From the NCBI GenBank assembly GCA_964016885.1, contig OZ024742.1, forward strand, positions 301,568,001 through 301,632,000: DNA of 64,000 bases, given 5' to 3'. Positions 6,121-64,000 of the stretch are shown piece after piece. Below the pieces are notes generated by a model. The model saw only the letters and a program-made list of their open reading frames with translations. It was not told the DNA's origin and ran no database searches. Every line of letters begins with the position of its first letter. Within the stretch, counting starts at the first letter, position 1. Source of the stretch: Eledone cirrhosa. Its lineage: Eukaryota. Made by a program: the position numbers and the translations under genes.

Positions 6121-6418
6121 ATTTCATCATCATCATTTTACGTCCGCTTTTCCCTGCTTGCAAGGGTGGGACGGGAACTGATTCTGGCTTGATTTCTACA
6201 GCTGGATGCCCTTCCTAACACCAACCTCATTTACAGTGAGTGCTGGGTGCTTTTTTGCTATGGCACCTCCATGACCACTTTGCATTTCTACAGCTGAGTA
6301 AACTGGAACAATGTGAAATAAAGTGTCTTGCTCAAGGAAACAACACATCACCCGGTCTGAGAATTGAACTCACAACCTTTCGATTGCAATGCTCTAAACA
6401 CTAAGCCATGTGCCTCCA
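6121..6418 (-). mobile_element. CORE-type SINE copy
   Basis: Matches 547-892. Confidence 0.85.
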
Positions 6419-26395: not shown

Positions 26396-26708
26396 CATCA
26401 TAATCCTCTGGGATTATTACGTCAGGTCCATTCTCTTTGTAGGTTTCCTCGGATTCATCAAACTCCATACATTTTGTCTCAAGTTTCTGGATATCACGAA
26501 AGTTATAGATCAATAGAGGTTGCTTTAGATCAAACTCAAAGTCCAGTTGATTGAGATAACATGATTGGGCAGCACACAACACTACCCTGGGTAAAGTAAA
26601 CTTAGAAACCAGGTCTTGTAAGGTATATGTCTGGGTACTCCAGCGGAATTCTTCCGACGAAGACAATATCGAGTTTGCTGTTTTTAAAACTTTCCTCAGA
26701 CGGTTCAT
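26396..26708 (-). CDS. CABIT-domain protein (GAREM/THEMIS-like), first coding exon
   Basis: MNRLRK...RWSTQTYTLQDLVSKFTLPRVV...QPLLIY...VIIPEDYD|G resembles the CABIT N-terminal W-S..Y.L..LV....LP.VV and IP..Y.G.F motifs. Donor G|gtaag at 26395. The spliced CDS is 1224 nt (407 aa) with no stops. Confidence 0.85.
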
Positions 26709-28988
26709 TGTAGTGGATATCTTCCTTGTCTATATATTGTAGTAGATATCTTCCTTGTCTATATCATTGTAGTGGATATCTCTATTATTTATATCATTGT
26801 AGTGAATTTTATTTTTATCTATATCATTGTAGTGGATATCTTCCTAGTTTATATCATTGTAGTGGATATCTTCCTAGTTTATATCATTGTAGTGGATATA
26901 TTCCTAGTTTATATCATTGTAGTGGATATCTTCCTTGTATATATCACTGTAGTAGATATCTTCTTTGTTTATATCACTGTAATGGATATCTTCCTTGTCT
27001 ATATCATTGTAGTGGATATCTTCCTAGTTTATATCATTGTAGTGGATATCTTCCTAGTTTATATCATTGTAGTGGATATATTCCTTGTATATATCACTGT
27101 AGTGGATATCTTCTTTGTTTATATCACTGTAGTGGATATCTTCCTTGTCTATATCATTGTAGTAGATACCTTCCTTGTCTATATCACTGTAGTGGATATC
27201 TTCCTAGTTTATATCACTGTAGTGAATATCTTCTTTGTTTATATCACTGTAGTGGATATCTTCCTTGTCTATATCATTGTAGTAGATACCTTCCTTGTCT
27301 ATATCATTGTAGTGGATATCTTCCTTGTCTATATCATTGTAGTGGATATATTCCTTGTATATATCACTGCAGTGGATATCTTCCTAGCCTATATCATTGT
27401 AGTAGATACCTTCCTTGTTTATATCATTGTAGTGGATACCTTCCTTGTCTATATCATTGTAGTGGATATCTTCCTTGTATATATCACTGTAGTAGATATC
27501 TTCCTTGTCTATATCATTGTAGTGGATATCTTCCTAGCCTATATCATTGTAGTGGATATCTTCCTAGTTTATATCATTGTAGTGGATATATTCCTAGTTT
27601 ATATCATTGTAGTGGATATCTTCCTTGTATATATCACTGTAGTAGATATCTTCTTTGTTTATATCACTGTAATGGATATCTTCCTTGTCTATATCATTGT
27701 AGTGGATATCTTCCTAGTTTATATCATTGTAGTGGATATCTTCCTAGTTTATATCATTGTAGTGGATATATTCCTTGTATATATCACTGTAGTGGATATC
27801 TTCTTTGTTTATATCACTGTAGTGGATATCTTCCTTGTCTATATCATTGTAGTAGATACCTTCCTTGTCTATATCACTGTAGTGGATATCTTCCTAGTTT
27901 ATATCACTGTAGTGAATATCTTCTTTGTTTATATCACTGTAGTGGATATCTTCCTTGTCTATATCATTGTAGTAGATACCTTCCTTGTCTATATCACTGT
28001 AGTGGATATCTTCCTAGTTTATATCACTGTAGTGAATATCTTCCTTGTCTATATCATTGTAGTAGATATCTTCCTTGTCTATATCATTGTAGTAGATACC
28101 TTCCTTGTCTATATCATTGTAGTGGATATCTTCCTTGTCTATATCATTGTAGTGGATATATTCCTTGTATATATCACTGTAGTGGATATCTTCCTAGCCT
28201 ATATCATTGTAGTAGATACCTTCCTTGTTTATATCATTGTAGTGGATACCTTCCTTGTCTATATCATTGTAGTGGATATCTTCCTTGTATATATCACTGT
28301 AGTAGATATCTTCCTTGTCTATATCATTGTAGTGGATATCTTCCTAGCCTATATCATTGTAGTAGATACCTTCCTTGTTTATATCATTGTAGTAGATACC
28401 TTCCTTGTTTATATCACTGTAATGAATACCTTCCTTGTCTATATCATTGTAGTGGATATCTTCCTAGTCTATATCATTGTAGTGGATATATTCCTTGTAT
28501 ATATCACTGTAGTGGATATATTCCTTGTATATATCACTGTAGTGGATATATTCCTTGTATTTATCACTGTAGTGGATATCTTCCTAGCCTATATCATTGT
28601 AGTAGATACCTTCCTTGTCTATATCGTTGTAGTAGATACCTTCCTTGTTTATATCATTGTAGTAGATACCTTCCTTGTTTATATCACTGTAATGGATATC
28701 TTCCTAGTCTATATCATTGTAGTGGATATCTTCCTAGTCTATATCATTGTAGTGGATATCTTCCTTGTATATATCACTGTAGTAGATATCTTCTTTGTCT
28801 ATATCATTGTAGTGGATATCTTCCTAGTCTATATCATTGTAGTGGATATCTTCCTAGTTTATATCATTGTAGTGGATATCTTCCTTGTATATATCATTGT
28901 AGTGGATATCTTCCTTGTATATATCACTGCAGTAGATATCTTCTTTGTCTATATCATTGTAGTGGATATCTTCCTAGTCTATATCATT
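26704..28988. repeat. 30-bp minisatellite, ~76 copies (ATATCATTGTAGTGGATATCTTCCTTGTCT)
   Basis: Seen directly. The variant pattern recurs at a 690-bp (23-unit) offset, e.g. 26881 vs 27571. Confidence 0.98.
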
Positions 28989-39460: not shown

Positions 39461-39984
39461 AATATCAAATAATTATTAAAAACGTTACAGGAGTCGCATT
39501 ATAATTAAGTTTCATACATACATATATATATGTGTGTATGTATGTATATATGTTATTCTACTGTAAATTTATTTATATGCTTTGTATATATTATATATAC
39601 ACAAATAATTGTTTCTACTTTAGGCACAAGGCCAGCAAATTACCCAGTGCATTACTGGTACTTTATTTTATCGACCCCGTAAGGATGAAAGGCAAAGTCT
39701 ACCTCGGCGGGATTTGAACTCAGCCGAGGTAGACTTTGCCTTTCATCCTTACGGGGTCGATAAAATAAAGTACCAGTAATGCACTGGGTAATTTGCTGGC
39801 CTTGTGCCTAAAGTAGAAACAATTATTTGTGTATATATAATATATACAAAGCATATAAATAAATTTACAGTATATACACAAATATATATACACAAATAAT
39901 GAATCTGTATATTAAAACATCGTTTGTATTATTCAATCAGTTTATTGAACAACTAGAATGCTCATGGTCAAGTACTTTATACAC

Positions 39985-40618: not shown

Positions 40619-41571
40619 CAGTGGTCGCCAACCTTTCTAAAACCGAGGAACCCTCTAAATATTTTGAATTCTTCACGGAACCTATACAATACAAAACTTT
40701 TCAAAAAAAAAAAAAGTATTTATTTATTTTAGTGTTTCATGCTTAGTATCAAGGTGTCTTTTAAGTTTTGCAGGATTTAAACAGCTATTTGATAGAACTT
40801 TTGAACATAGCAAACACATGGGCTGATCTGGTATATCTTTTTTAGTGTCAGCTTTTTAAAATCCATATCTAACATAATCATCAGACCACTGTCTAACCTT
40901 ACTGCTGGTATCTAACTTCAGCTTCTTTGCAGTAGACATCATATCAATGTTATTTATCTACAGTTAAACTTTTTAATATGACATTGGCGATATCCAATTT
41001 TAGCGGCATTTAGGCCGCTTACTTGCTGCATACTTCAATGTATGAGGCTATTCCAACAAATTTACATCCCCCCCCCCTTTTTTTTTTAGCCGTTAAAAGA
41101 AATATAGATTTTTTTTTTTTTTTCGGCGATCTATTAGAGAGGGGGTGCTCCCTTCTTCTCTTACCTGTACAAGCCGATATAAAGAGATGGCCCACGTACA
41201 CGGGAAGAAATATAGATTTTTTTGATTTTTTTATTTCAATTTATTAGAGAGGGGGGGTGCTCCCTTCTTCTCTTACCTGTACAAGCCGATATAGAGAGAT
41301 GGCCCACGTACACGGGCCATTATTGCTACTTTCACCCATCTTTCATGGAATTGGCTGGGACTGAGTGCCTTTTTCTCCAAGAGGACCATTTGTTGGTCGG
41401 CGACATCCCCACAATTTCCTCGTTGCAAACGCATCTGGGACATTTCTTTTCCAAGGGGTTTCCGTCCCGGAATCCGTGTCTGTAGAGCCTTTCCCGAACG
41501 GGCAGGGCCTCTCGGTATAATAGTAAGTATTAGCGGTTGTAATAAAAATGCAATCAAAATGTAATAAATAC

Positions 41572-41707
41572 CTTCACTGATTTCTTTCCTTATATTATCA
41601 ACAGAAGTTGGTATGTCACCCAAAGTTCGCTTTGTATGTTCCCGAATAGCAGTGAATTTTGATAAAATTGTTTCTAATTCCTTCTCCACAGTAAGACAAA
41701 TATCCAT
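41572..41707 (-). pseudogene. RMND5: captured RMND5-like exon 1, left-arm copy
   Basis: MDICLTVEKELETILSKFTAIREHTKRTLGDIPTSVDNIRKEISE followed by G|gtattt. Confidence 0.7.
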
Positions 41708-42323
41708 GGGTAGTTGAAGAGGATAAGTATGAAAGAACAGTCATTTAAATTTACAGATGGACAGATGTGGTGTTTGGCGGGGTTTGAGATATATAGAAAA
41801 ATAATTATTTACAGAAAAAGAAAATAATAAAGAATTATTATAATTTTTTTAAAGATTTATATCTTTTTGGACTTTTGGAAGCAAATTTTAAACTGTATAT
41901 CGCAACAATAAAAAAGAAAAAAAATATTTCTTTAAACAATATATTGTTCCGATATACAGTTTAAAATCTTTGGGAAACATCTACCGTCTCCACTCATAAA
42001 GCTGTCATTTCGCCACCGCCACATGAATTCATTCAAATATGACAAACATGGATCGGCTAGTGCCGTTTATTTTTTTTATTTTTTTTTTGGCATGAGACCA
42101 GAGTCCTTCAATATGTTGGGTATGCGTTCTGATACCGGATCGACAAAATTTAGTGAATGATTCACTGTAGAGTGTTGATAATTAACAGGCATATGTCGTA
42201 TGTATCATGGATCCACTCAGCACATGGTTTTGTATAATGGGTAGCAGGGTCTCAGCAGTGCGATCTGGGATTTCTTTAAGAAAAATTTTTCTGGGATTAT
42301 TGGTATCGATCCCACCAATGACC

Positions 42324-42664
42324 TGTAGCGGTTGTCTCCCTTGTTTTGATTAGGATCTAGACGGGAAGTGGAACCCTTTCTGCAACTTCCGGTCAGAGCC
42401 CTATAAAACTAACAACTTTAAGCTTCCTTTCTCTCATTGCCTTTTCGGCACCAGGTCAAGAGCCTCTCATTGGGCTCCGCCATTCATTTGGCCAACAGGC
42501 GCCTGGCTAAGGCCAGGCGGCCTCTGTCAGCCGCGTTTGCCTGGCAATCAAAACGGTAACTACTAACTTTGCTTCATTCTAACAACATCTATCTTTGACA
42601 TGTCTCGTTTTGTTACATTCATACAACCTCAGTAATCTCGCTATATTGGTGACCCTGACGTGAT
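42324..42664 (+). mobile_element. LTR (322 bp) plus tRNA-Trp primer-binding site
   Basis: TGTAGCG...CGCTA(T)A terminal inverted motif and internal CTATAAAA, followed by TGGTGACCCTGACGTGAT, complementary to the tRNA-Trp 3' end with one wobble. Confidence 0.8.
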
Positions 42665-42700
42665 ACGAACACGCAGCCGTTCATCGCTATAAGTGGTCAC

Positions 42701-42731
<31 letters not shown>

Positions 42732-44258
42732 AAAAAAAAATAGCACATCTGGTTTTGTGAGTAACATTACGAATACACAGCAAATTTAGCGACAAACTAT
42801 GAAAATACTCAAGGACACGCACACACGCACATGTGGAATTCGCACAGACATACTTTTTCTCTCACGCATCAATTAACTGTCGCATTTCACCAATATATAT
42901 ATATGTTTCTCGTTTCTTACAACGAACACTTTCAAAACAAAAAAAAAAAAAAAAAAACATTTCACGATATATATATATGTTTCTCGTTTCTTACAACGAA
43001 CTCTTTCAAAACACACAAAAAAAAAAAAGAAATTTGATATTCTTTAAAAAAACATTTCAACAGGAACATTTATTTTCGATGAACCATTGCCTTTTTGTTC
43101 ATCGTTTTCTTCATCGTTCAAGTTTTTTGTTTTTTTCCAAAGTTCACACCAATAATTATGCTGAGTGAAGCCTTTCTTTTTCATCATTGTCACTTTCAAA
43201 ATTGCACTATCATTTTCTCGCGCGTTAGAAATATTATTTTTTTCAACCTTGTATTGGCACGTGTAGGCAGCATAAATTCTCGATTCACAGAGATGTCTCT
43301 ACTCACAGACAGCCGCACGCCAGAGATAACATTTCTCACCAAGGATTCTTCAGCCTTAAGCTATATTCTTCTATTTGCCGGTTTATAAATTTACAATGTA
43401 AATTTACCGTTGATAACCGCGCATTTATTAAGAATGCTTATTTCTCTGGTCGCTGGCCTCTTGACCCTTCCAGGTCAACGCATTCTCAACATCGACCATC
43501 AACTTCGGCTGCTATTTCTAGCACTTTGCGCAACTCATTTTTTCTAAAAAAAAATTTTTTACTGTGAATTTAAACACCGAATACGCTCACTCAGCGAGAC
43601 AACAGCAGCAGCAACAACAATATAACAGCAACAGCAATACATCAATACAGCTTCACCAAAGCCAGAGAATTCATTTTTGCAGCACTCTTCCTGTGAGAAA
43701 ATCCATTCGGAGGTTGGAAATTTCACGATATACCACAGAACAGAAACCACCTGCATTCATTCTCTGGAACACACTTTCTTTCCTGCTGTCATGTGATTGC
43801 ACACCTGTGAACTATATTTTGAACTTTGAGCTCTTCTATTACTTTTACTTTATTACATTGTATCTTTGGGTGATGGATAGATGGATGTCCAGTCGTTCTC
43901 TGGCCAAGAGCGGTTGGCTACCTTGATATCTATCATTGATTTTTTCCAAACATCCTTTTGTCGTAATTTTATGCCAATTCGTGTAAAATACCCAAAGATT
44001 ATGTATATTAATATAAGTTTCACTTTATGAATTTCAGTTTAAAATCAATTATAAGATAATCACCGACAGAGGGCTAATATTTATAATTTTGGGTTATTTT
44101 CCACAATAAAGTGAAACTTATATTAATATACATAATCTTTGGGTATTTTACACGAATTGGCATAACTAGCTCCCTGCCGGTCATTTCAATGCAGATATTG
44201 TTAAAGGTGAAATAACATAGTTCTAATTGATTTTAAACCGAAATTCTGAATAAAGAAA

Positions 44259-45190
44259 ATGCCAGGACGTCCACCTGCACCAATTTTCATTGTTGAAAAT
44301 GTTAATTCATCACAGCAGACGTTAAATATGGATTTGAAAATGAGGGAACTGGCGATTTTAACTGCAAACAAACTCAGTATTATCGAATGTATGGCTCGGA
44401 ACCGATTACTTTCAAACACTATGAACTGTCCTTCATGTAATATTTCCTGTTCGTTTGTAAGTTACAAAGAAGTAATCGACCAATTTCGATGGAAATGTAA
44501 GGTATGCAGTTTAAGAAAATCTGTCCGTTCTGGGTCATTTTTTTTTCGAGGCCACTTAGATTTACATCAAATGATTTATATGATTTACTTCTGGTCAATT
44601 GGGTTCGAAAATATTATTATTGCTGACGAGATTCGGTGTAGTGAAAACACCATTATTGACTGGTGCAACTTTTTACGGGACGTGTGCAGTGAATGGGTGG
44701 ATCGAAACCCATCAAAACTAGGTGGAATGGATGATGACGGAGTCCCAATAGTTGTACAAATCGATGAAAGTAAATACTTTCATCGAAAGTACGCTCGTGA
44801 GACCTGGCATGAAGGCCATTGGGTCATTGGTGGGATCGATACCAATAATCCCAGAAAAATTTTTCTTAAAGAAATCCCAGATCGCACTGCTGAGACCCTG
44901 CTACCCATTATACAAAACCATGTGCTGAGTGGATCCATGATACATACGACATATGCCTGTTAATTATCAACACTCTACAGTGAATCATTCACTAAATTTT
45001 GTCGATCCGGTATCAGAACGCATACCCAACATATTGAAGGACTCTGGTCTCATGCCAAAAAAAAAATAAAAAAAATAAACGGCACTAGCCGATCCATGTT
45101 TGTCATATTTGAATGAATTCATGTGGCGGTGGCGAAATGACAGCTTTATGAGTGGAGACGGTAGATGTTTCCCAAAGATTTTAAACTGTA
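44259..45190 (+). pseudogene. Merlin/ISXO2-like DDE transposase, frameshifted
   Basis: CPSC...WKCKVC zinc ribbon, VQIDESKYFHRKY, WVIGG, DRTAETLLPII, GSMIHT. A deletion removes the second Asp region; out-of-frame H.TVNHS.NFVDP, HTQHIEGLWS and EFMWR follow. Confidence 0.92.
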
Positions 45191-45437
45191 TATCGGAACA
45201 ATATATTGTTTAAAGAAATATTTTCTTTCTTTTTTATTGTTGCGATATACAGTTTAAAATTTGCTTCCAAAAGTCCAAAAAGATATAAATCTTTAAAAAA
45301 ATTATAATAATTCTTTATTATTTTCTTTTTCTGTAAATAATTATTTTTCTATATATCTCAAACCCCGCCAAACACCACATCTGTCCATCTGTAAATTTAA
45401 ATGACTGTTCTTTCATACTTATCCTCTTCAACTACCC

Positions 45438-45573
45438 ATGGATATTTGTCTTACTGTGGAGAAGGAATTAGAAACAATTTTATCAAAATTCACTGCTATT
45501 CGGGAACATACAAAGCGAACTTTGGGTGACATACTAACTTCTGTTGATAATATAAGGAAAGAAATCAGTGAAG
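45438..45573 (+). pseudogene. RMND5: captured RMND5-like exon 1, right-arm copy
   Basis: MDICLTVEKELETILSKF...LGDILTSVDNIRKEISE resembles the RMND5A/GID2 N-terminus as I recall it (MDQCVTVERELEKVLHKF...). Ends at donor G|gtattt. Confidence 0.72.
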
Positions 45574-47351
45574 GTATTTATTACATTTTGATTGCATTTT
45601 TATTACAACCGCTAATACTTACTATTATACCGAGAGGCCCTGCCCGTTCGGGAAAGGCTCTACAGACACGGATTCCGGGACGGAAACCCCTTGGAAAAGA
45701 AATGTCCCAGATGCGTTTGCAACGAGGAAACTGTGGGGATATGTCGCCGGCCAACAAATGGTCCTCTTGGAGAAAAAGGCACTCAGTCCCAGCCAATTCC
45801 ATGAAAGATGGGTGAAAGTAGCAATAATGGCCCGTGTACGTGGGCCATCTCTCTATATCGGCTTGTACATGTAAGAGAAGGGAGCACCCCCCTCTCTAAT
45901 AAATCGCAAAAAAAATAAATAAATCTATATTTCTTTTAACGGCTAAAAAAAGGGGGGAATGTAAATTTGTTGGAATAGCCTCATACATTGAAGTAAGCAG
46001 CAAGCAAGCGGCCTAAATGCCGCTAAAATTGGATATTGCCATGACATTAATAAACAAGAGAAATTAACAGTTTTTTTAATTACAGAAAGTACTTAAATTA
46101 ACTTTAATTTTAGATATTTGGAAAAACTTAACTAGTTAAAAAAAAATTTTAATTTTTAAAAATTGAAATTTCTCCATTTTAGGATGGCAAACATATTATT
46201 TAAAGTCTTATAATAATATTAAAATATTAGAGGTTACTGAAAAAGGTGCAAATTTATAAACAACTAGAAGAAATTTTTTTCAGAGTCCAGCACTTCCTGC
46301 ATATACTACTTTAGGGTCGTATTAAATATTATTGGTAATGTAAATATATTTAAATATCCGCCATACTAAAAGGTGCAAAAAATGCAGATCAGCTGATAGT
46401 GTAGAAGATATGACGATGGTATTGGAAATTAATTCAGATATCTTCTATCTATTTTGACTCAAAGTTAGATATAATATAAGAAGGCTTTAGGCTGCGTTAA
46501 ACATATATTAGATTGGAACAAATAAAGTTTAGTCAAATGCTTGTGGACATATATATTTATTGTATGAAGTAATTTCTCAATTGTGAATGCAGATGTCATC
46601 AAATGAATACATGTGTGGCAAAGTTGATAGTGTATGCATGGAATGCAAAATTACCTTTGTTAGTAGTCGAAACTTTACAGGCGTTATATTTTCTGTACAA
46701 AGTACAACAGAATGTAACGTGTTCTTATTTAGAATTGTCTGTGGAACTGGATGCATGTTGAAAACGACTAGTAAGCGAGTTCACTCTGCGAGGAAACTTT
46801 AGGCGACTTTAAAGCTTTTGTGAGGACAGCAGATTAAAAGGTGTTCTCTATTGAAAACATTCTACTGAACTTACGTTGTGAGAACAGCGAACTGACCCTG
46901 TCTCTCGGCTGAGAGACCTCGCTGAACTGAAGTTTTCAGTTTAAAGTTATGCTGTCATCGACCAACATTTACTTGTTCGTGATTGGTCAATTTCTAAGTT
47001 CAATTAGTGTATTATCAGTAGTAGTCAAATCCTCGGAATTCAGAAAACTATGTCTTTCCAAGAATTGATGTGAAATTGAAAGTATTCAATTTCCACGAAT
47101 CTCAGAACAGTGTTTTTCTACTAATTCAAGTGAGAAACTAAAAGTAGTGTTTTCCACGAATTGGAGTGGAGAACCTGTGTACACTACAATAGTACTCGTT
47201 CATTTATACATTGCACCTTTGGCATTTTCTTTGCACCTTTTTCAGAAAACCCAAAATATTAATGGTAATGTAAATATTTATTTTTTTAAGGAACCCGGAG
47301 TTTGTTCTACGGAACCCCAAGGTTCCGCGGAACCCATGTTGGCGACCACTG

Positions 47352-49905: not shown

Positions 49906-50374
49906 AAGGAAAAACCCTAGAAAATGCTATTTTCATCATTTCTAAAAATAGCAAAACAATTGATGCTTTGAATAGGGCCAAATAGAAGTCGTTAGACATG
50001 CCCAACCAACCGTGATGCCTAAACCAATCAGCTTCAGTAATCCAGTGAAACTACACATCGATTGGTCGAAATACAGTTTGCAAAATTTAGCATTCTGTAG
50101 CCGCTTTTCACTGTATATAAGGCACAAAATTTACCCATCTCATTACAGTTGAAAATTGTAAACTTGACTGTCACCACAGAATATGAACCTGAATATTGCG
50201 AAAGTATGAAATTACTTGTTCAATTAACACTTAATATTCTACCATACTATTTCATTCTAATACCATTATAATTTTAAAGGATTGTAAATAAAACGAGTAA
50301 ATCAGACAAAGTTGGAATTCCTTTTATTAATATAATCTTCTATACAAAATCATACACACCCGTGTATATTTATT

Positions 50375-50406
<32 letters not shown>

Positions 50407-51034
50407 GCTTTTAAGCTATTTTGTAGTATCTCTGTTCAGGAACACACCACTTATATTAAATTTATCTCCCTAGAGCTTCGTAAAAGTCTGAGAGATTGGC
50501 TACATAGATGTTTTGATGTTTTATATATATATTTTTTTTTGTTTAGATGGAAGACAAAACAAAGAAGATGAATACAAAGATGAAGAAGAGAAAGATAAAG
50601 ATGAAGAACCTCACTGCACCGCACTGCACAACACCGCACTGCACAACACCACACTGCACCGCACCACAGTACTCCACACCACATAACACCCAAAAAAATT
50701 TTCCTCAGCATTTTTTCATGTGTTATGAACTAATCCGAACTCAAAGATGTTTGTTATTGACTCTCTCTTCATGGAAAACTTAGGTGGATGCACTTCTCTC
50801 ATTTAACCCCAGAGTTTTCTCTAAGAGATTTTATATGTTATCAACGAATATGACCTCCAAACCAGTTGGAAATGATTAGTTGTTCTAGGAAAAAGGAGAG
50901 GTAAAGCAGGTGGAAAAACCATTGTTGTTTTGTAGATATATACCCTAATGATTTTTCTTCGGTCTCCTTTTGAGTGCTATCAACTAATCTGACCTTTTAG
51001 TTGTTCTGAATCAATTTTTTTTCTTCTGGGATTT

Positions 51035-51356
51035 GGAAACTAAAACTAAATTAAACATAAAATTAAATCTAGCCCCAACTCTAAACTCTAAATCTAAACC
51101 AAACAAAGCTAAATCTAAATATAAACATTACCCCAACCCTTAAACTAAACCCTAAAACTAGACCCTAAACATTACCCCAAACCTAAATCTAAACCCTAAA
51201 CTTTACCCCAAACCTAAAACTAAATCCTAAACTTTAACCTAAACTTTACTCCAACCCTAAAACTAGACCCTAAACATTACCTCAACCCTAAAACTAAACC
51301 CTAAACTTTACCCCAACCCTAAAACTAAACCCTAAAAATTACCCTAAACCTAACCC
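51035..51356. repeat. telomere-like (CCCTAA-related) degenerate tract
   Basis: AACCCTAAAACTAAACCCTAAACTTTACCCC units. Duplicated at ~59565-59836. Confidence 0.8.
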
Positions 51357-53429
51357 AGGGAAATAAGTTGATTGGAAGCATCTAGGTCAGATTAATTAAT
51401 AGCACAGGAAATAGCACAGGAAATAGCATAGGAAATAGCATAGGAAATTAATAGCACAGGAAATATACCGAAAATGATTAAGTCCCACAACATGTGAGTG
51501 GGGTGTAGATCTGCAAAACTCTTTCCCTCTCTTTCTCCAAAGCTAGTTGTTTTTGACTGGTTTGGAAGTCATATTCACTGATAACGCATGAAAATAGAAT
51601 CAAAGAGAAAATTCCGAGTAAGCAGGGGTTATCCGGGTGAAGGGGGAACCACCTCACCCCGCCGTTTTCCTGGAGGGGAAAAGTCAGTTTCAAGCATCTT
51701 GGAGATTGGATTAGTTGATAGCACATGAAAAATAGGATGAAAACATTTCACATCACATCACACCACACCACATCACATCACATCAGACCACACCACATCT
51801 CACCATATCACATCACATCACTCATCTCGTCTCAACTCGCCTCATTTCACCACACCACGCCACATTTCATCACATCACATCACATATCACCACGCCATGC
51901 CACATTTCATCACATCACATCCCATTTCACCACGCCTCGCCACATCACATCATATCACATGCCATCACATCACATGCTACCACACTACATCCCACAACAC
52001 TCCACTACACCATATCCCCCACCCTACATTGAACCACACCACACTCCACTACACCACACCACTGTCCACTACACTAAACCACACTCCACTACACTACACC
52101 ACACCACCGTCCACTACACTAAACCACACTCCACTACACTACACTAAACCACACTACACCACACCACACCACTGTCTATTCGACTGTTTTCTATTTCGTA
52201 GGTATGTCCAGTTACAGTAAGAGAAAGAAAGTTATTTCAAAGGATCTGAGTAAGTAAACACTGCATTGACCATCATTTTAAGCAGAATCTGTGTAGTTTT
52301 AAATTGACCTTTTCATATGATTACACCTCAGTCTTAACTTAACCACCTGTAGATGGATGCTACATGTAATGTTAAAATTAGTAAACACTGTTTCCCCCTT
52401 CTCATCACATGTGGATGCTACATGTGTATTGTTAACATTAATCTAACGTTGTGTGTGTCCCCCCCCCGCCTCACCATATCATACCACACCACATCACACC
52501 ATGTACTACACCAGACCACATAACACCATGCTATACCATATATATATATGAGCTCCCCACTCGTTATATTAACTGTATCTCCTCGGTGTTTCGTGAAAGT
52601 CTGAGAGATCAGCTATATATTTGTTTACAATTTTTTTTTATATTTAGATGGAAAAGAAGAAAAAGACGACGAAGCAGACGACTAAAATGAAAATGACAAC
52701 AAAGACAAAGAAGACACGGGGAAACGAAGATGACGAAAAGAAGAAGACGAAAAGAAGAAAGTATGATCTCAGTTCAGTCTAAACTTAATGATTTATAGAT
52801 ATTTAGGTTTAACTTAAACATTCAAAGATATTTGTATATACTTTTGTTGATGTTTGACATTGTTTTTTAGTTATGTAATAGCTTATAAGCTACATTATAG
52901 GATCACAGTGCATGAGTACACTGCTCTTTAAATTAACTTTATCTCCTCAGCACTTTGTAAAGTCTGAGAGATAGGCAACATATATGTTTTACATTCTTTG
53001 TTTTTGGTATTTAGATGGCAGAGGAGAAGTCAAAGGCACAGAAGAAGTCAAAGGCACAGAAGAAGTCAAAGGCACAGAAGCAGTCAAAAGCACAGAAGAA
53101 GACAAAGAAAATGAACAAGAACAATTATTATTACTATTACTATTATTATTGTTATTATTATTTGTATTATTATAATCAAACTAAGCCACACTACATCAAC
53201 CTATACCATACCACACCACACTGACAAACATTATACCATACCACATTATCCAACACCACACTACGAAACACTGTACGACCTCATATCAGACCATGCTGTG
53301 AAACAATATACCATACTACACTATACAACAATAGACAACACCACACAAGACTATGAAACACTATATTTTACCACACTATATCACACCACTCCAGTTAGAG
53401 GGGATCAACTTTTTTCCTGGAAAGTAGAA

Positions 53430-56400
53430 AACCTAACTTTAAGCTAAAACCGAACTTTAAAAATAACACTTACCCTAACACTTGCACTCACACATGCTCT
53501 AACAGTGAACTTAGCGCTAACATGAAAACTAACACAAACACAAAATCTGAAAACTAACATTAAATAGAAAACTAACCTGAACACTAACACTAAAACTGAC
53601 ACTAACACTAACCTGAACACCAGCAGTAAAACTAACACTACCGTAAACACTAATACAAACACTAACGCTGACCTGAGCACTAACACTAAAAGTAACACTA
53701 ACACAAACACTAATCTGAAAACTGATACTAACCAGAAAACTAAGCTAACATTAACTTCAACACTAAAACAAACACTAATGCGAACAGAGATACTAACACA
53801 AATATTAACACAAAAACAAACACTAACACAATCTCTAACTCTAACCTGAAAACTAAGCTAACATTAACCTGAACACTAACAGAAATACTAATGCTAACAT
53901 TAACGCTAACCTGAAAACAAAAACAAAGACTAACGCTAACACAATCACTAACACTAATGGAAACATCAAACACTAATGCTAACAGAGATACTAACACAAA
54001 TATTAACACAAAAACAAATACTAACACTAACACAATCTCTAACATTAACCTTAACACTAAAACTAACACTAACATTAACTTGAACACTAACACTAACCTG
54101 AACACTTACACTAAAACTAACACTAACAGAGATACTAACACAAAAACAAACACTAACACTAAAACTAACATTAACTTGAACACTAACACTAACCTGAAAA
54201 CTAAGCTAACATTAACCTGAACACTAACACAAACACTCATGCTCACAGTAACAGAAATACTTATGCTAACATTAACACAAAAACAAAGACTAACGCTAAC
54301 ACAATCACTAACACTAATGGAAACATCAATCACTAATGCTAACAGAGATACTAACACAAATATTAACACAAAAACAAACACTAACCTCAACACTAACACT
54401 AAAACTAACATTAACTCTAACCTGAAAACTAAGCTAACATTAACCTGAACACTAACACTAACCTGAAAACTAAGCTAACATTAACCTGAACACTAACACA
54501 AACACTCATGCTAACAGTAACAGAAATACTAATGCTAACAATAACAAAAAAACAAAGACTAACGCTAACACAATCACTAACACTAATGGAAACATCAAAC
54601 ACTAATGCTAACAGAGATACTAACACAAAAACAAATACTAACACTAACACAATCTCTAACATTAACCTTAACACTAAAACTAACACTAACCTGAACACTT
54701 ACACTAAAACTAACACTAACAGAGATACTAACACAAAACAAACACTAACACAATCTCTAACACTAAAACTAACATTAACTTGAACACTAACACTAACCTG
54801 AAAACTAAGCTAACATTAACCTGAACACTAACACAAACACTCATGCTCACAGTAACAGAAATACTAATGCTAACATTAACACAAAAACAAAGACTAACAC
54901 TAACACAATCACTAACACTAATGGAAACATCAATCACTAATGCTAACAGAGATACTAACACAAATATTAACACAAAAACAAACACTAACCTCAATACTAA
55001 AACTAACATTAACTCTAACCTGAAAACTAAGCTAACATTAACCTGAACACTAACACTAACCTGAAAACTAAGCTAACATTAACCTGAACACTAACACAAA
55101 CACTCATGCTAACAGTAACAGAAATACTAATGCTAACAATAACAAAAAAACAAAGACTAACGCTAACACAATCACTAACACTAATGGAAACATCAAACAC
55201 TAATGCTAACAGAGATACTAACACAAATATTAACACAAAAACAAATACTAACACTAACACAATCTCTAACATTAACCTTAACACTAAAACTAACACTAAC
55301 CTGAACACTTACACTAAAACTAACGTTAACCTAAACACTAGCACTAAAACTAACACTACCATAAAAACTAACACTAAAAACAACACTAACTAACCTGAAC
55401 ACTAACACGAAAACTGATACTAACCAGAAAACTAAGCTAACATTAACCTCAACACTAAAACAAACACTAACATTAACAGAAAAACAAAGACTAGCACTAA
55501 CACTAATGGAAACACTAACACAAAAGAAAACACTAACACTAATGGAAAAAATAACACTAACACTAAAACTAACACTACCGTAAACACTAACACTAAAACT
55601 GACATTAACCTGAACACTAACACTACCATAAACCACTAACCTGTGCACTAACACTAAAAGTAACACGAGCCCTAACCTGAAAACTAACACTAACCAGAAA
55701 ACTAAGTCAACATTAACCTGAACACTAACACAAACACTAACACTAACAAAAATGCTAACACTAATACAAAATCAAACACTAACACGAACACTAATGGAAA
55801 CACTAACACCAACGCTGACGAAGATGGCTATGCTAGCACAAACGCTAGCGCAAATGTTGACACAATCGCTTACGCTGACACAAACACTAATGTGAATACT
55901 GATGCAGGTGCAAAGGCGAATGCTGACTTAAGACTCTGACGCACACGCTGATGTAAATGCTACACAGACTCTAACGCTGATGTGGACACTGACACAAATA
56001 CTCACGCTGATGCAAACACTAAAGCAAATGCAGACACTAATGCAAATGCAGATGTTAAAGCAAACGCAAATGCTGACGCAAACAATGACAGCGATGCTAA
56101 TGTGAACCTTAACGCAGACGTAAACATTGACATAGAAGCTAAAGGAAACACTGATGCAAACACTAATGAAAATGCTGACGCAGACGCTGACACACGTTAA
56201 CACAGATGCTAACGTAAACACTGACGCAGATGCTAATATAAACACTGACGCAGACGCTGACACAGATGCTAACACACGTTGACACAGACGCTAACGTAAA
56301 TGTAAATGCTGACCCTGATGTAGATGTAAATACAGACGCTGACACAGACGCTAACGTAGAAGCTAACACAAACACTGACACAGACACTAATGTAGATGCT

Positions 56401-57480
56401 GACGTAGAAGCTAACGTAAACGATGACGTAGATGTTAACGTAGACGCTGACGTAGAAGCTAACTTAGTTGCTGACGTAGAAGCTAACAAAACGCTGACGT
56501 AGTTGTTAACGTAGAAGCAGGCGTAGAAGTTAGCGTTTACCCTTACTGCCGAAGCTGATCTCCAAAACGCAATTACTGATGCGGATTGCTGAAGCCAAAG
56601 CCAAGCTAACGCTGAGGCAAAGGTTGAGGCAGTTTTGCCGGCGCTGACGTGTATGCTGACGCTAACGCAAATGCTGATGCGGACGCTAGGGCTAAGGCTA
56701 ACGCTAACGCTGACGCAAATGTTGAAGTTAACGCTTACATGGGATATGCAGACGCTGCAATGATGCGGACGCCACAGGAAAGGTTAATGGAAACGCTAAT
56801 GCTAACGGAAAACGCTGACGTAGACATTACGGAAACACTGACGTAGAAGCTAACGTAAACGCTGACGTTAACTGAAACGCTGACGCTGATGTAGATGTAA
56901 ATACTGAGGCTGACACAGACGCGGTCGGAAATGCTGACGTAGAAGCTAACGGAAAGACTGACATAGAAGCTAACGTACACGCTGACACAGACGCTAACGG
57001 AAACACTGACACAGACGATAAAGGAAACGCTGTCGCAAACGCTAATGCTAATGTGAATGCTGATGCTGACGCAAATGCTAACCCCTACACAAATGCAAAC
57101 ACTGATCAAACACTAATGCAAAGGCTGACGTGCACGCTGACACTGACACGGACGCTAATGATAATGCTGACGTAGAGGCAGGCACTGAAACAAACAATAA
57201 TGTTGACTCACACGCTAAGGGAAATGCTGACACAATCACTATCACCAATGCAGACGCTGACGCAAATGCTGACACTTACGCAAACACTAACGCAGATGCT
57301 AACACCAGTCTACTTAGACACTAACACAAAAGCTTACATAGACGCTTATGCAAATACTAACGCTGATGCAGACAGTAACGCAAACAGTAACTGTAAGAGT
57401 AACAGTGACAGTAACACAGTCACTAACAATAAACTTACCATTAACAGTAAAACTTACCCTAACATTAATCCAGAGAAAAA
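53430..57480. repeat. hexamer-based low-complexity satellite (ACTAAC grading to GCTGAC/GCTAAC)
   Basis: Seen directly, with internal ~300-bp block duplications at 53700-55300. Confidence 0.9.
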
Positions 57481-58710
57481 AGTCATTTGCAATCACATTT
57501 AAGGTCACTCTTTAAGATATAGAAGATAGGCATTACATTTTAATGATTTTAATCTAAAGAGAACCACGCTATACGATGCAACACAATAACACACCACAGC
57601 ACACTAACCTACACTATACCAAACCAGATTATATCATACCTTGGTAAATTTATGATAGGTTTCCATGTTATAACTACACCAAACTAAACCATACCAAACT
57701 ACACCAAACCAAACCACACCATAACAAACTACACCATACTACATCACACCATGCTATTAATCTCAGTGAGAACATTTTTCTTCCTGTTTTTTTTTTTCTG
57801 TGTGTGTGTGTGTGCTTACCACCCAATCTGATATCAAAGGTGCTCAAAAATGACTATTTTTTTACACATTATCAATGTATATAACATGGAAACCTATCAT
57901 TTGCAATAGGTTCCCATGTCATAATTACAACAATCCAAACCACACCATAACAAACTACACCATTCTACATCACACCATGCTTTTGATCTCAGTGTGAAAA
58001 ATTTTCTTCCTGTTTTTTTGTTTTTTTTTGTATGTTCTTACCACCCAGTCTGACATCAAAGGTGCTTCGCACATATTATCAATAATTATGACATGGAAAA
58101 CTGTCGAAAATGACTAGCTTTGTAGAAAAAAGAGGGAGGATGTGGGTGGAAATACCATTTACAAAGCTAGTCATTTTTTATTGCAGCGGAAGTCATATTT
58201 TTTGTTAATATGCTAAAAGCATAGTCCACTGCGAGCTTCTTGGAAGTTAACACATGCAAAAATGAAGGAAAAATTTTTTTTCTAACATAAATCAAAGTGG
58301 AAATTTAAATTCTCACTTATAACAAAGCACACCACAGCACATTAATCTACCTCAATCCACACCATATACTTCACCATAACCATACTTCCCTATATGGTAA
58401 ATTTATTACAGACACCTACTCCTACCATTTACATCACACGGACATTAATGTAACAAATTTGCTACCTGCTTTCTTTTTTTTTTTTTTGTGGTTACCACCT
58501 CAAATTAACATCAAAGGTGCTTGCAAATGACTATTTTCCCACACATTATCAATGGATATGACATGGGAATCTATCGTTTACAATTGGTTTCCATTTCATA
58601 ACTTCACCAAACCGAACCAAACCACACCATACCAAGTTACACCATACTACATCGCACCAAGCTATTGATCTTGGTGTGAAAAATTTTCTTCCCATTTCCT
58701 TTTTTTTTTT

Positions 58711-61700
58711 AATATAATCTTCTATACACAATCATACACACCCATGTGTATTTATTTATATATATATATGTATATATATATATATAGCTTTTAAGCTATT
58801 TTGTAGTATCTCTGTTCAGGAACACACCACTTATATTAAATTTATCTCCTTGGAACTTTGTAAAAGTCTGAGAGATTGGCTACATATAGGTTTTATATAT
58901 ATATATTTTTTTTTTAGATGGAAGACAAAACAAAGAAGATGAATAGAAAGATGAAGAACCTCACTGCACCGCACTGCACAATACCGCACTGCACAACACC
59001 GCACTGCACAACACCACATTACTCCACACCACATAACACCCAAAATTTTTTCCTCATCATTTTTTCATGTGTTAGGATTGGCAGTATCGGTAGAGGGTCA
59101 GACACCATGCTTTCCAGCATAGTTACGTCCCTTTACGATCTGAGTTCAAATCCCGCCGAGGTTGACTTTGCCTTTCATCCTTACGGGGTCGATAAAATAA
59201 AGTACCAGTAATGCACTGGGTAATTGCTGGCCTTGTGCCTAAAGTAGAAACAGTTATGAACTAATCCGAACTCAAAGATGTTTGTTATTGACTCTCTCTT
59301 CATGGAAAACTTAGGTGGATGCACTTCTCTCATTTAACCCCAGAGTTTTCTCTAAGAGATTTTATATGTTATCAACGAATATGACCTCCAAACCAGTTGG
59401 AAATGATTAGTTGTTCTAGGAAAAAGGAGGGGTAAAGCAGGTGGAAAAACCATTGTCGTTTTGTAGATATATACCCTAATGATTTTTCTTCGGTCTCCTT
59501 TTGAGTGCTATCAACTAATCTGACCTTTTAGTTGCTCTGAATCAATTTTTTTTTCTGGGATTTGGAAACTAAAACTAAATTAAACATAAAATTAAATCTA
59601 GCCCCAACTCTAAACTCTAAATCTAAACCAAACAAAGCTAAATCTAAATATAAACATTACCCCCAACCCTTAAACTAAACCCTAATCTATACCCCAACCA
59701 TAAAACTAAACCCTAAACATTACCCCAAACCTAAAACTAAACCCTAAACTTTACTCCAAACCTAAAACTAAACCCTAAACTTTACTCCAAACCTAAAACT
59801 AGACCCTAAACATTACCCCAACCCTAAACCTAACCCAGGCAAATAAGTTGATTGGAAGCATCTAGGTCAGATTAATTAATAGCATAGGAAATAGCATAGG
59901 AAATTAATAGCACAGGAAATATACCGAAAATGATTAAGTCCCACAACATGTGAGTGGGGTGTAGATCTGCAAAACTCTTTCCCTCTCTTTCTCCAAAGCT
60001 AGTTGTTTTTGACTGGTTTGGAAGTCATATTCACTGATAACGCATGAAAATAGAATCAAAGAGAAAATTCCGAGTAAGCAGGGGTTATCCGGGTGAAGGG
60101 GGAACCACCTCACCCCACCGTTTTCCTGGGGGGAAAAGTCAGTTTCAAGCATCTTGGAGATTGGATTAGTTGATAGCACATGAAAAATAGGATGAAAAAA
60201 TTTCACATCACATCGCACCACATCAAATCACTCCGCACGCCATCACATCACACCACACCACACCAGACCACACCACATCTCACCATATCACATCACATCT
60301 CACCATATCACATCACATCACTCATCTCGTCTCGCCTTGCCTCGGCTCATTTCACCACGCCATGCCTCATTTCATCACATTACATCACATTTCACCATGC
60401 CGCGCCACATTTCATCACATCACATCACATTTCACCACGCCTTGCCACATCACATCACATGCTACCACACTACATCCCACCACACTCCACTACACCATAT
60501 CCCCCACCCTACATTGAACCACACTCCACTCCACCACACCACTGTCCACTACACTAAACCACACTACACCACACCACACCACTGTCTATTCGACTGTTTT
60601 CTATTTCGTAGGTATGTCCAGTTACAGTAAGAGAAAGAAAGTTATTTCAAAGGATCTGAGTAAGTAAACACTTCATTGACCATCATTTTAAGCAGAATTT
60701 CAGTGTAGTTTTAAATTGACCTTTTCATATGATTACACCTCAGTCTTAACTTAATCACCTGTAGATGGATGCTACATGTAATGTTAAAATTAGTAAAACA
60801 CTGTTTCCCCCTTCTCATCACATGTGGATGCTACATGTGTATTGTTAACATTAATCTAACGTTGTGCCCCCCCCCCTCCCGCCTCACCATATCATACCAC
60901 ACCACATCACACCATGTACTACACCAGACCACATAACACCATGCTATACCATATATATATATGAGCTCCCCACTCGTTATATTAACTGTATCTCCTCGGT
61001 GTTTCATGAAAGTCTGAGAGATCAGCTATATATTTGTTTACAATTTTTTTTTATATTTAGATGGAAAAGAAGAAAAAGACGACGAAGCAGACGACAAAAA
61101 TGAAAATGACAACAAAGACAAAGAAGACACGGAGAAACGAAGATGACGAAAAGAAGAAGACGAAAAGAGGAAGAAAGTATGATCTCAGTTCAGTCTAAAC
61201 CTAATGATTTATAGATATTTAGGTTTAACTTAAACATTCAAAGATATTTGTATATACTTTTGTTGATGTTTGACATTGTTTTTTAGTTATGAAATAGCTT
61301 ATAAGCTACATTATAGGATCACAGTGCATGAGTACACTGCTCTTTAAATTAACTTTATCTCCTCAGCACTTTGTAAAGTCTGAGAGATAGGCAACATATA
61401 TGTTTTACATTCTTTGTTTTTGGTATTTAGATGGCAGAGGAGAAGTCAAAGGCACAGAAGAAGTCAAAGGCACAGAAGAAGTCAAAGGCACAGAAGAAGT
61501 CAAAGGCACAGAAGAAGTCAAAGGCACAGAAGAAGTCAAAGGCACAGAAGCAGTCAAAGGCACAGAAGCAGTCAAAAGCACAGAAGAAGACAAAGAAAAT
61601 GAACAAGAACAATTATTATTACTATTACTATTATTATTGTTATTATTATTTGTATTATTATAATCAAACTAAGCCACACTACATCAACCTATACCATACC

Positions 61701-64000
61701 ACACCACACTGACAAACATTATACCATACCACATTATCCAACACCACACTACGAAACACTGTACGACCTCACATCAGACCATGCTATGAAACAATATACC
61801 ATACTACACTATACAACAATAGACAACACCACACAAGACTATGAAACACTATACGTTGCCACACTATATCACACCACTCAAGTTAGAGGGGGATCAACTT
61901 TTTTCCTGGAAAGTAGAAAACCTAACTTTAAGCTAAAACCGAACTTTAAAAATAACACTTACCCTAACACTTGCACTCACACATGCTCTAACACTTGCAC
62001 TCACACATGCTCTAACAGTGAACTTAGCGCTAACATGAAAACTAACACAAACACAAAATCTGAAAACTAACATTAAATAGAAAACTAACCTGAACACTAA
62101 CACTAAAACTAACACTAACCTGAACACCAGCAGTAAAACTAACACTACCGTAAACACTAATACAAACACTAACACTGACCTGAGCACTAACACTAAAAGT
62201 AACACTAACACTAACCTGAAAACTTACACTAAAACTAACATTAGCCTGAACACTAGCACTAAAACTAACACTACCATAAACAGTAACACAAACACTAACA
62301 CTGATCTGAGCACTAACACTAAAAGTAACACAAACACTAATCTGAAAACTGATACTAACCAGAAAACTAAGCTAACATTAACTTCAACACTAAAACAAAC
62401 ACTAACGTTAACAGAGATACTAACACAAATATTAACACAAAAACAAACACTAACACAATCTCTAACACTAACCTCAACAGTAACACTAAAACTAACATTA
62501 ACTTGAACACTAACTCTAACCTGAAAACTAAGCTAACATTAACCTGAACACTAACATAAACACTAATGCTAACATTAACAGAAATACTAATGCTAACGTT
62601 TACGCTAACCTTAACACAAAAACAAGGACTAACGCTAACACAATCACTAACACTAATGCTAACAGAGATATTAACACAAAAACAAATACTAACACTAACA
62701 CAATCTCTAACATTAACCTTAACACTAAAACGAACACTAACATTAACTTGAACACTAACACTAACCTGAACACTTACACTAAAACTAACACTAACAGAGA
62801 TACTAACACAAATATTAACACAAAAACAAACACTAACACAATCTCTAACACTAAAACTAACATTAACACTAACATAACTTGAACACTAACACTAACCTGA
62901 ACACTTACACTAAAACTAACATTAACCTAAACACTAGCACTAAAACTAACACTACCATAAAAACTAACACTAAAAACAACACTAACACTAACTAACCTGA
63001 ACACTAACACGAAAACTGATACTAACCAGAAAACTAAGCTAACATTAACCTCAACACTAAAACAAACACTAACATTAACAGAAAAACAAAGACTAGCACT
63101 AACACTAATGGAAACACTAACACAAACATTAACACACAATAAAACACTAACACTAACCTGAACACTAACACTAAAACTGACATTAACACGAACATTAACC
63201 TGAACACTAACACAAACACTAACACTAACAAAAATGCTAACACTAATACAAAATCAAACACTAACACGAACACTAATGGAAATACTAACACCAACGCTGA
63301 CGAAGATGGCTATGCTGGCACAAACGCTAGCGCAAATGTTGACACAATCGCTTACGCTGACATAAACACTAGCGTGAATACTGATGCAGGTGCAAAGACT
63401 GACGCATACGCTGATGTAAATGCTACACAGACTCTAACGTTGACGTGGACACTGACACAAATGCTCACGCTGATGCAAACACTAAAGCAAATGCAGACAC
63501 TAATGCAAATACAGACGCAAATGTTGATGCAGATGTTAAAGCAAACGCAAATGCTGACGCAAACGATGACAGCAATGCTAATGTGAACCTTAACGCAGAC
63601 CTAAACATTGACGTAGAAGCTAAAGGAAACACTGATGCAAACACTAATGAAAATGCTGACGCAGACGCTAACACACGTTAACACAGATGCTAACGTAAAG
63701 ACTGACGCAGATGCTAATATAAACACTGACGCAGACGCTAACATAAATGCTGACACAGATGCTAACACACATTGACACAGACGCTAACGTAAACGATGAC
63801 ATAGAAGCTAACGTAAACGCTGACACAGACGCAAATGTAAACGCTGACGCTGATGTAGATGTAAATACAGACGCTGACACAGACGCTGACGTAGAAGCTA
63901 ACACAAACGCTGACACAGACACTAATGTAGATGCTGACGTAGAAGCTAACGTAGATGCTGACGTAGAAGCTAATGTAAACACTGACGTCGAAGCTAACAA
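58711..64000. repeat. ~8.4-kb tandem duplication, copy 2 (runs off the window)
   Basis: High identity to 50330-56400, differing in repeat copy numbers and one SINE insertion. Confidence 0.92.
59075..59252 (+). mobile_element. Nin/Deu-like SINE inserted only in duplication copy 2
   Basis: The empty site ATGTGTTATGAAC is at ~50718. Here the SINE is flanked by GTTA on both sides. Confidence 0.85.

Follow-up and report, generated by a model that had tools for sequence, protein, structure and literature searches.

The window analysed in this study is a 64,000-nucleotide stretch of the Eledone cirrhosa genome (contig OZ024742.1, positions 301,568,001 to 301,632,000 of assembly GCA_964016885.1). 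It contains a palindromic Merlin transposon (40986..46040), and a piece of the host gene RMND5, which includes the first exon, lies in each arm of this element. A sequence-only reading of the window had described the piece as an exon captured by the Merlin and had proposed that the element can donate the exon outward and that its hairpin RNA could act on host RMND5 in trans. The element, its relatives, the source gene and the transcripts in which the exon occurs are described here.

Results

Palindromic Merlin element

The element reads GG..CC at its ends and is flanked by the target-site duplication (TSD) ATGACATT at 40978-40985 and 46041-46048. The ends were picked on the GG motif and then confirmed by the TSDs. 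The single (empty) site of this insertion is seen in paralogous copies of the surrounding hAT element (L003 and L050). The transposase gene (44259..45213, plus strand) is of the IS1595-type DDE class and is broken by 29-, 1- and 2-bp deletions. The mirror gene is represented by its 3' part (41932..42323, minus strand), which has the same three deletions and is cut off by the insertion of a long terminal repeat (LTR) retrotransposon piece. This piece (42324..43975, plus strand) has a 5' LTR and a primer-binding-site (PBS)-like site, lacks a 3' LTR, interrupts the left arm of the Merlin and is 93% identical to a two-LTR copy. The two-LTR copy (L047:5685-7830) has LTRs of ~370 bp, a PBS-like site and a 4-bp TSD, and lies ~40 kb downstream of host RMND5 exon 1. 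The palindrome centre (43969..44165) has its axis near 44067 and a spacer of ~73 bp; we infer that it is a divergent promoter region. Arms in the window copy are 1.3 kb long and are 98.5% identical (41205-42323 versus 44822-45935). The window copy is dead.

The carrier had been called a Merlin from the sequence alone, and its GG ends, 8-bp TSD and transposase agree with that call. Among 26 end pairs from the window and 33 further loci, the 8-bp TSD was exact in 18, had one mismatch in four and was absent in four. Related copies scored 46.3 bits (L053) and 33.2 bits (L048) against DDE_Tnp_IS1595 (cut-off 27); the window transposase stays under this cut-off because it is broken. The D, D and E blocks are present in L053, as judged by patterns that we take to mark them. 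Two CxxC motifs were found at the N-terminus of the window transposase (44424-44510). The match to Zn_Tnp_IS1595, a domain described as absent from Merlins, is weak (E=0.0048, 17.3 bits versus a cut-off of 25.4). L048 is a full palindrome of 3828 bp with two divergent 242-aa open reading frames (ORFs) and the TSD CGTACTGT, and its centre is the same as that at window 44067. Shorter copies of the family are deletion products, many of them ~1.7 kb long with two exons back to back. An intact autonomous copy was not found among 14 starts in 15 loci, the longest ORF being 283 aa.

The three deletions in the window transposase are common to both arms and occur in 0 of the other 18 arms aligned, some of which do not cover every site. 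The two arms of one copy differ by 1.27% on average of 14 pairs, and arms taken from different copies by 2.07% (652 pairs). In 14 two-armed copies, 10 private variants are present in both arms and 54 in one arm only. The tree of the arms was mostly unresolved. From these sequence comparisons, arm-to-arm conversion probably keeps the arms of a copy alike, and unsampled parent copies could contribute.

Long inverted repeats are prone to mis-assembly, and the structure could in principle be an assembly artefact or a segmental duplication of the host locus. We regard this as very improbable. TSDs are present at 22 of the 26 end pairs and are distinct between copies, reciprocal empty sites occur in the hAT paralogues, the host locus has no Merlin, and the same junctions are found in three DNA-like sequencing runs.

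A sister Merlin family (L063-L067) is ~70% identical, has different terminal inverted repeats (TIRs) and lacks the RMND5 piece. One ORF of this family is 321 aa long, stop to stop. In L063 and L064, the transposase 3' end is repeated in reverse in the left arm. A small Merlin derivative (L052:1563-2180) with the TSD CTGATTTC lies inside the RMND5 exon of another Merlin copy.

RMND5 piece and host gene

The RMND5 piece of the right arm (45304..45628, plus strand) comprises 5' untranslated region (UTR), exon-1 coding sequence (45438-45573), a GT donor at 45574 and the start of intron 1. Its frame begins with the ATG at 45438, runs for 45 codons to 45572 and leaves a G at 45573 before the GT at 45574-45575, which makes a phase-1 donor. 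The mirror copy in the left arm (41517..41841, minus strand) has its ATG at 41707 and its donor after 41572. The exon had been placed at these coordinates (45438-45573; 41707-41572) from the sequence alone, and this placement holds. It had also been described as doubled and inverted in the arms of the element. It is, but the arms are not ordinary terminal repeats; the doubling follows from the palindromic structure of the entire element.

The piece is 87% identical at the DNA level to host L043:6166-6519 (alignment of window 45287-45621), with an exact host match beginning at L043:6183. In three fuller Merlin copies (L057, L058 and L060) it reaches host 6556. In the family as a whole, the captured extent is ~150 nt of UTR, exon 1 and up to 85 nt of intron 1, situated 3' of the Merlin transposase and joined to the 3' end of a long interspersed element (LINE).

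The attribution of the 45-aa peptide to the RMND5 N-terminus, proposed in the sequence-only reading, was borne out by the searches. Its best PDB match is human RMND5A (residues 1-43 on 1-43, E=0.013). A phmmer search of 1.84 billion proteins gave 82 matches at E<=0.001; five were inspected, four of which are RMND5-like and one an unrelated repeat protein. A word-based homologue search with the peptide returned 23 candidates, none at E<=0.01; it was uninformative and is superseded by the PDB and phmmer searches. The sole Pfam match of the peptide, Laminin_II, was judged to be due to chance.

A CTLH search of the species' own 3.0 Gb genome located host RMND5 on contig C5 at ~79.536-79.549 Mb, where nine coding stretches align with a cephalopod RMND5 protein. 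The peptide of host exon 1 equals residues 1-45 of annotated Octopus RMND5A and shares 84% identity with its counterpart in the window. The host donor is in use: exon 1 ends in GAA G|gtattt, exon 2 starts at ttgcag|TG, and the intron between them is 5703 nt long. Both the UTR and the start of intron 1 of the host are represented in the captured piece, and the host splices at the same phase-1 donor. No Merlin sequence matched near host exon 1 in the 180 kb searched. The piece lies between the inverted repeats of the transposon, and the parental copy is free of the element, as in Pack-TIR elements.

At the start of RMND5 intron 1, a head presumably like that of a short interspersed element (SINE) seems more complete in a transposon copy (L057:4610-4651) than in the host (L043:6515-6556). 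The head in L057 may possibly be a record of the ancestral intron.

Spread and decay of the exon

An exact 23-mer of the exon had 93 matches at 64 loci on 20 contigs, a multi-copy spread like the amplification by transposition of Pack-TIRs. This count is a lower bound (at least 64 loci) that misses changed copies, including those borne by hAT elements.

Six replacement and no silent changes are fixed in the exon relative to the host. The Octopus and Argonauta RMND5 proteins equal the Eledone host protein at these sites; therefore, the amino-acid changes were fixed on the transposon side. In 39 indel-free arms, 14 replacement, three stop and seven silent variants were counted, with ~22% of sites being silent. 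This pattern fits an exon that decays as if neutral and would be a passenger. Against this reading stands the make-up of the sample: the 48 arms, of which nine were dropped for indels, were best-scoring matches and lean towards intact copies. Positive selection was rejected, since six replacements out of six have a chance of ~0.2 when 78% of sites are replacement sites. Capture of an A-to-I edited transcript was also rejected, as only one of the six fixed changes is A-to-G.

LINE fused to the RMND5 piece

The LINE 3' end (45629..45897, plus strand) is presumably Tx1-like, is internally deleted and is co-oriented with the RMND5 piece. It was aligned to 10 genomic LINE copies. Its mirror (41136..41516, minus strand) includes a 112-bp tandem duplication. 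In fuller Merlin copies the LINE piece is ~730 bp long, and zf-RVT is matched in L057 with E=2e-7. The genome contains 2587 related LINE candidates. The 3' terminus of the piece is common to two of the 10 genomic copies; the other eight were cut off by the slice used. The LINE piece stands in sense and begins right after host 6556, with no further host intron behind it. A host 5' piece in sense followed by a LINE with its own 3' end is the arrangement of an mRNA/LINE chimera. Other copies of the LINE piece did not turn up in a script search of a subset of the loci.

A scan of the 440 nt that precede the host ATG gave a single TATA-like word, TATATAAA at L043:6155. The exact match between host and transposon starts at 6183, which is 28 nt after it (4.2% chance in 5000 shuffles). 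A pre-capture Merlin was not found: all 22 family matches upstream of the junction enter the RMND5 piece, and the remaining three of the 25 matches belong to the sister family.

Merlin insertions in hAT elements

The window Merlin is inserted in an internally deleted hAT element of a family termed 'A' (40619..47351, minus strand; TSD ACCTACAC), whose transposase ATG is at 40942. Family 'A' has 142 candidates. Among the window and the 33 loci, five Merlin insertions occur at four hAT 'A' loci (window, L068, L069 and L050), and the hAT TSDs differ among the three of these loci for which both ends were read. Three of the insertions lie within ~60 bp just upstream of the transposase ATG. This clustering, together with the founder insertion in the hAT-B family described below, suggests a target preference or local hopping.

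In hAT-B, a young family, a 1.3-kb palindromic Merlin derivative with the TSD GTAATTTG is situated ~90-105 bp inside the 5' end. The derivative joins the Merlin centre to the last 38 nt of the RMND5 UTR and to the exon, which has an in-frame 45-bp deletion. All 13 long hAT-B copies carry the Merlin right end; 10 keep the ATG and donor, nine of which also keep the acceptor, and two copies have an intact 883-aa transposase ORF. Among 21 further copies, Merlin sequence is present in 20, and the remaining one lacks a 5' end. Merlin sequence was therefore present in 33 of the 34 copies examined (out of 35 matches), eight of which have one common TSD and are probably segmental duplicates. These eight short copies (L130-L133 and L141-L144) share the TSD TACTCCTC; those on C5 and C211 are spaced ~130-175 kb, which suggests a segmental array in tandem and of large size. 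All copies examined are descendants of a Merlin/hAT-B composite. Assignment to hAT is based on short TIRs, on an 8-bp TSD (exact in six and with one mismatch in two of the nine copies with both ends) and on Dimer_Tnp_hAT (31.8 bits, cut-off 21.4) and DUF4371.

Splicing of the RMND5 exon onto the hAT-B transposase in one run

Three of the sequencing runs are DNA-like (X1-X3) and one is RNA-like (X4). X4 was taken as RNA because it contains the spliced junction of host exons 1 and 2. When X4 was aligned with the window, a 1435-nt contig with host alleles left the alignment at exactly 45573, and a second contig left at the same base. The consensus of the loose ends, compared with host exon 2, gave a pattern with seven genome matches (one for the control). 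All seven lie directly behind AG and belong to a single family of hAT elements. On L079, a 1939-nt contig of X4 skips 539 nt with GT..AG ends, going from the RMND5 donor to an acceptor 11 nt before the hAT transposase ATG. No contig of X1-X3 has this joint. In X4, the RMND5 exon is the only 5' partner seen for the transposase exon, and the native hAT leader (L079:2810-2937) is without coverage. Since the host contig continues past the donor without a break, the chimeric contig would carry the transposon allele.

The X4 alleles are a mixture of those of L083, which has an intact ORF and agrees at 24 of 26 sites, and those of the frameshifted L082, which agrees at 20 of 26. In the spliced message, the exon forms a 31-codon upstream ORF (uORF); 6 nt separate its stop from the transposase ATG, which is in frame with it. 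Position -3 is C at the uORF start (A in the host) and A at the transposase start, which makes leaky scanning plausible.

Chimeric splicing at 45573 and outward donation of an ATG with a donor, both raised in the sequence-only reading, are seen in part: X4 contigs leave exactly at that base, and an X4 contig joins the RMND5 donor to a hAT acceptor, in one RNA-like run and for the derivative inside hAT-B, but not for the window copy. The left donor of the window points at the hAT transposase ATG at 40942, in a hAT that is deleted, and the insertion appears to split the hAT pyrimidine tract from its AG. No reads supported splicing from this donor to the hAT. The window-specific letters at 45436, 45477 and 45535 are absent from the X4 contigs, in which rare variants are dropped.

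Other repeats in the window

A 30-bp minisatellite of 76 copies occupies 26705-28988. A 170-bp inverted pair of a SINE-like repeat (39539-39892) is 96% complementary, with 14 nt between its halves. Two similar C/A-rich tandem-repeat blocks (50365-57750 and 58750-64000) have the same order and are possibly a segmental or tandem duplication. Codon-like repeats of 12 to 72 bp are found at 56100-57400.

Discussion

We consider it fairly probable that the window holds a dead palindromic Merlin with a neutral RMND5 exon 1, likely acquired through an RNA-LINE chimera, and that a derivative of this family likely supplies a leader exon to a hAT transposase. Of this account, several parts are seen directly in the sequences: the 5' end of RMND5 is fused to a LINE 3' end and lies 3' of the Merlin transposase; the two-armed family, with its 8-bp TSDs, has reached no fewer than 64 loci; and a 1.3-kb derivative inserted inside hAT-B, after which the composite was amplified.

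The anatomy of the block leans towards an RNA that ran from the cap site through the unspliced donor into a LINE end. RMND5 and LINE may thus have entered the Merlin as one reverse-transcribed RNA, either after a LINE had switched template to RMND5 RNA that was still unspliced or after transcription had read through into an intronic LINE that has since been lost. This route is slightly favoured because the piece starts at TATA+28 and joins the LINE 3' end in sense. Capture at the DNA level, by the template switching in gap repair of classic Pack-TIRs (FoSTeST), is a serious contender from which we lean away; it would treat the LINE as separate and the rest of the intron as deleted later. Intron sequence is kept, the family often deletes internal sequence, and the 5' junction is immediately preceded by a fold-back of the transposase 3' end, as this mechanism would allow. 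Tan et al. (2021, PMC8277862) propose FoSTeST for the multicopy Pack-TIRs of animals. However, similar fold-backs occur in the sister family without an RMND5 piece, and DNA-level capture requires both the landing of the LINE in sense at the 3' edge of the host piece and a 5' edge at TATA+28 by chance. The retained donor had been read from the sequence as a sign of DNA-level capture. That conclusion is not established, because an unspliced RNA ending in a LINE would keep the donor as well. Several points tell against the RNA route. TATA-like words are common in AT-rich DNA, no TSD around the RMND5 and LINE block was convincing by eye (the tail region is rearranged), which also suits DNA-level capture, and no empty site for this step was found.

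At hAT-B, the RMND5 exon likely serves as the leader exon of the transposase mRNA. The RMND5 donor would be spliced to the acceptor before the transposase ATG, as seen in one run, with the Merlin centre acting as a putative hAT-B promoter and the transposase translated past the 31-codon uORF by leaky scanning or re-initiation. A real but incidental splice falls just short of being probable in our judgement; here the hAT would have used its own promoter or an outside transposase, with the Merlin hitch-hiking on the founder. One founder explains the Merlin in all copies, the hAT has a donor-like GTAAGT of its own ~50 nt upstream of the acceptor, translation may be lowered by a uORF that stops 6 nt ahead of the ATG, and the data are from one sample. 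The sole 5' partner seen in X4 is nevertheless the RMND5 exon, the native leader has no cover, and the alleles come from two unlinked copies, within ~10 kb of which there are only transposable element (TE) ORFs or short unassigned frames.

The leader-exon role itself has to be weighed against a number of points. None of the runs is on record as RNA, and the splice comes from one study, one sample and one contig. The short side of this contig has 28 letters (30 with ambiguous ones), below the 31-letter bridging mark, and the contig is too short to tell which exon copy donated; a hAT-borne exon in cis would be the probable donor. No listed X4 contig spans the junction between Merlin centre and UTR, and the summed bin depth leaves no room for one, so that the promoter and start site of hAT-B are not seen directly. 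Contigs in which the TE-type donor is left unspliced exceed the spliced one in depth (21.4 versus 11.2), contig depth being a poor measure. An empty hAT-B site was not found, all 12 pattern matches being filled copies.

A bolder account is a three-step relay from LINE to two-headed Merlin to hAT that built a working transposon gene. In it, a LINE would have copied the 5' end of the transcript of a host housekeeping gene into a Merlin, and this Merlin, once palindromic, would have brought its promoter and the host exon into a hAT; the borrowed promoter and exon would express the hAT transposase and have driven a hAT burst, and the mirror exon would fire outward into the flanking DNA at each insertion. 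We regard this as tentative and rather doubtful. Whether a borrowed promoter and exon drive a transposon burst is directly testable because two hAT-B copies keep an intact transposase frame.

The main effect might instead be exerted in trans, host RMND5 being regulated through small RNAs or editing substrates that arise from hairpin RNA of the palindromic copies. The 1306-nt derivative folds as a near-perfect hairpin (-970 kcal/mol, with no shuffle control), perfect host matches of 44, 38 and 36 nt exist, and TE-type exon contigs are present in X4. This account is improbable to us, given that the host mRNA contig is present, exceeds the TE-type contig in depth (99.5 versus ~31.5) and matches the host genomic alleles. 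It differs from the window at eight letters, the same number as the host gene; seven of these are listed, and each is an allele of the host genome. The X4 sample thus gives no sign of strong silencing or of editing in the majority of transcripts, and contigs would hide minority editing. The silencing or editing of RMND5 suggested from the sequence is, so far, not supported.

With these results, Merlin joins the DNA transposons that carry host exons in animals, and its copy number greatly exceeds that of the few multicopy Pack-TIRs in the survey cited below. They also provide a young, traceable case in which a captured exon is used by another transposon rather than by the host. A Pack-Merlin, a two-transposase palindrome and a captured host exon leading a DNA transposon were not found in the literature searched, outside which lie the founding Merlin paper, Repbase/Dfam and most subscription papers.

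The part of Lopes et al. (2021, PMC8101967, citing Feschotte, 2004) considered here describes Merlins by GG termini, an 8-bp TSD and DDE_Tnp_IS1595, and reports them as abundant in Octopus bimaculoides; gene capture by Merlin is unmentioned there. Against a TSD of 8 or 9 bp for Merlins, the window family has 8 bp. Unlike the described Merlins, whose TIRs of 24-462 bp are a described range and not a defining limit, this family has arms of up to ~1.9 kb with the whole transposase gene present twice; the arms are 1.3 kb in the window copy, and in L048 the entire 3828 bp form a palindrome. Merlin is named only in a table in the available part of PMC13282606. Among transposons with growing repeats, the family resembles Galileo, in which TIRs lengthen by recruiting internal sequence and conversion is invoked (Marzo et al., 2013, PMC3573991). 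Galileo is of the P superfamily, and the sections of that paper considered here describe neither a complete two-transposase palindrome nor a host exon.

The survey of animal Pack-TIRs (Tan et al., 2021, PMC8277862) covers 370 cases, mostly hAT (208) and TcMariner (115), with four multicopy families; the word 'Merlin' is absent from its main text, and the 12 supplements contain it a single time, heading a column. Like these Pack-TIRs and Ssk-FB4, as presented in the portion of the survey considered here, the present family has a short host piece in a TIR transposon, an element-free parent and multicopy spread by transposition, often with chimeric transcripts. It differs from them in the Merlin carrier, in the presence at no fewer than 64 loci and in having the transposase of another transposon as the splice partner. 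The RMND5 and LINE block recalls mRNA/LINE-1 chimeras, in which a host first exon stands in sense before the LINE in 15 of 17 cases, and, in the use of a host exon as the 5' end of a transposon, RAP1GDS1/L1PA2 (bioRxiv 10.1101/2025.02.02.635956). In that report the exon is mostly spliced to a near full-length L1 with the host promoter in place, whereas the present family keeps the intron, has only the 3' stub of a LINE and carries the exon within a DNA transposon.
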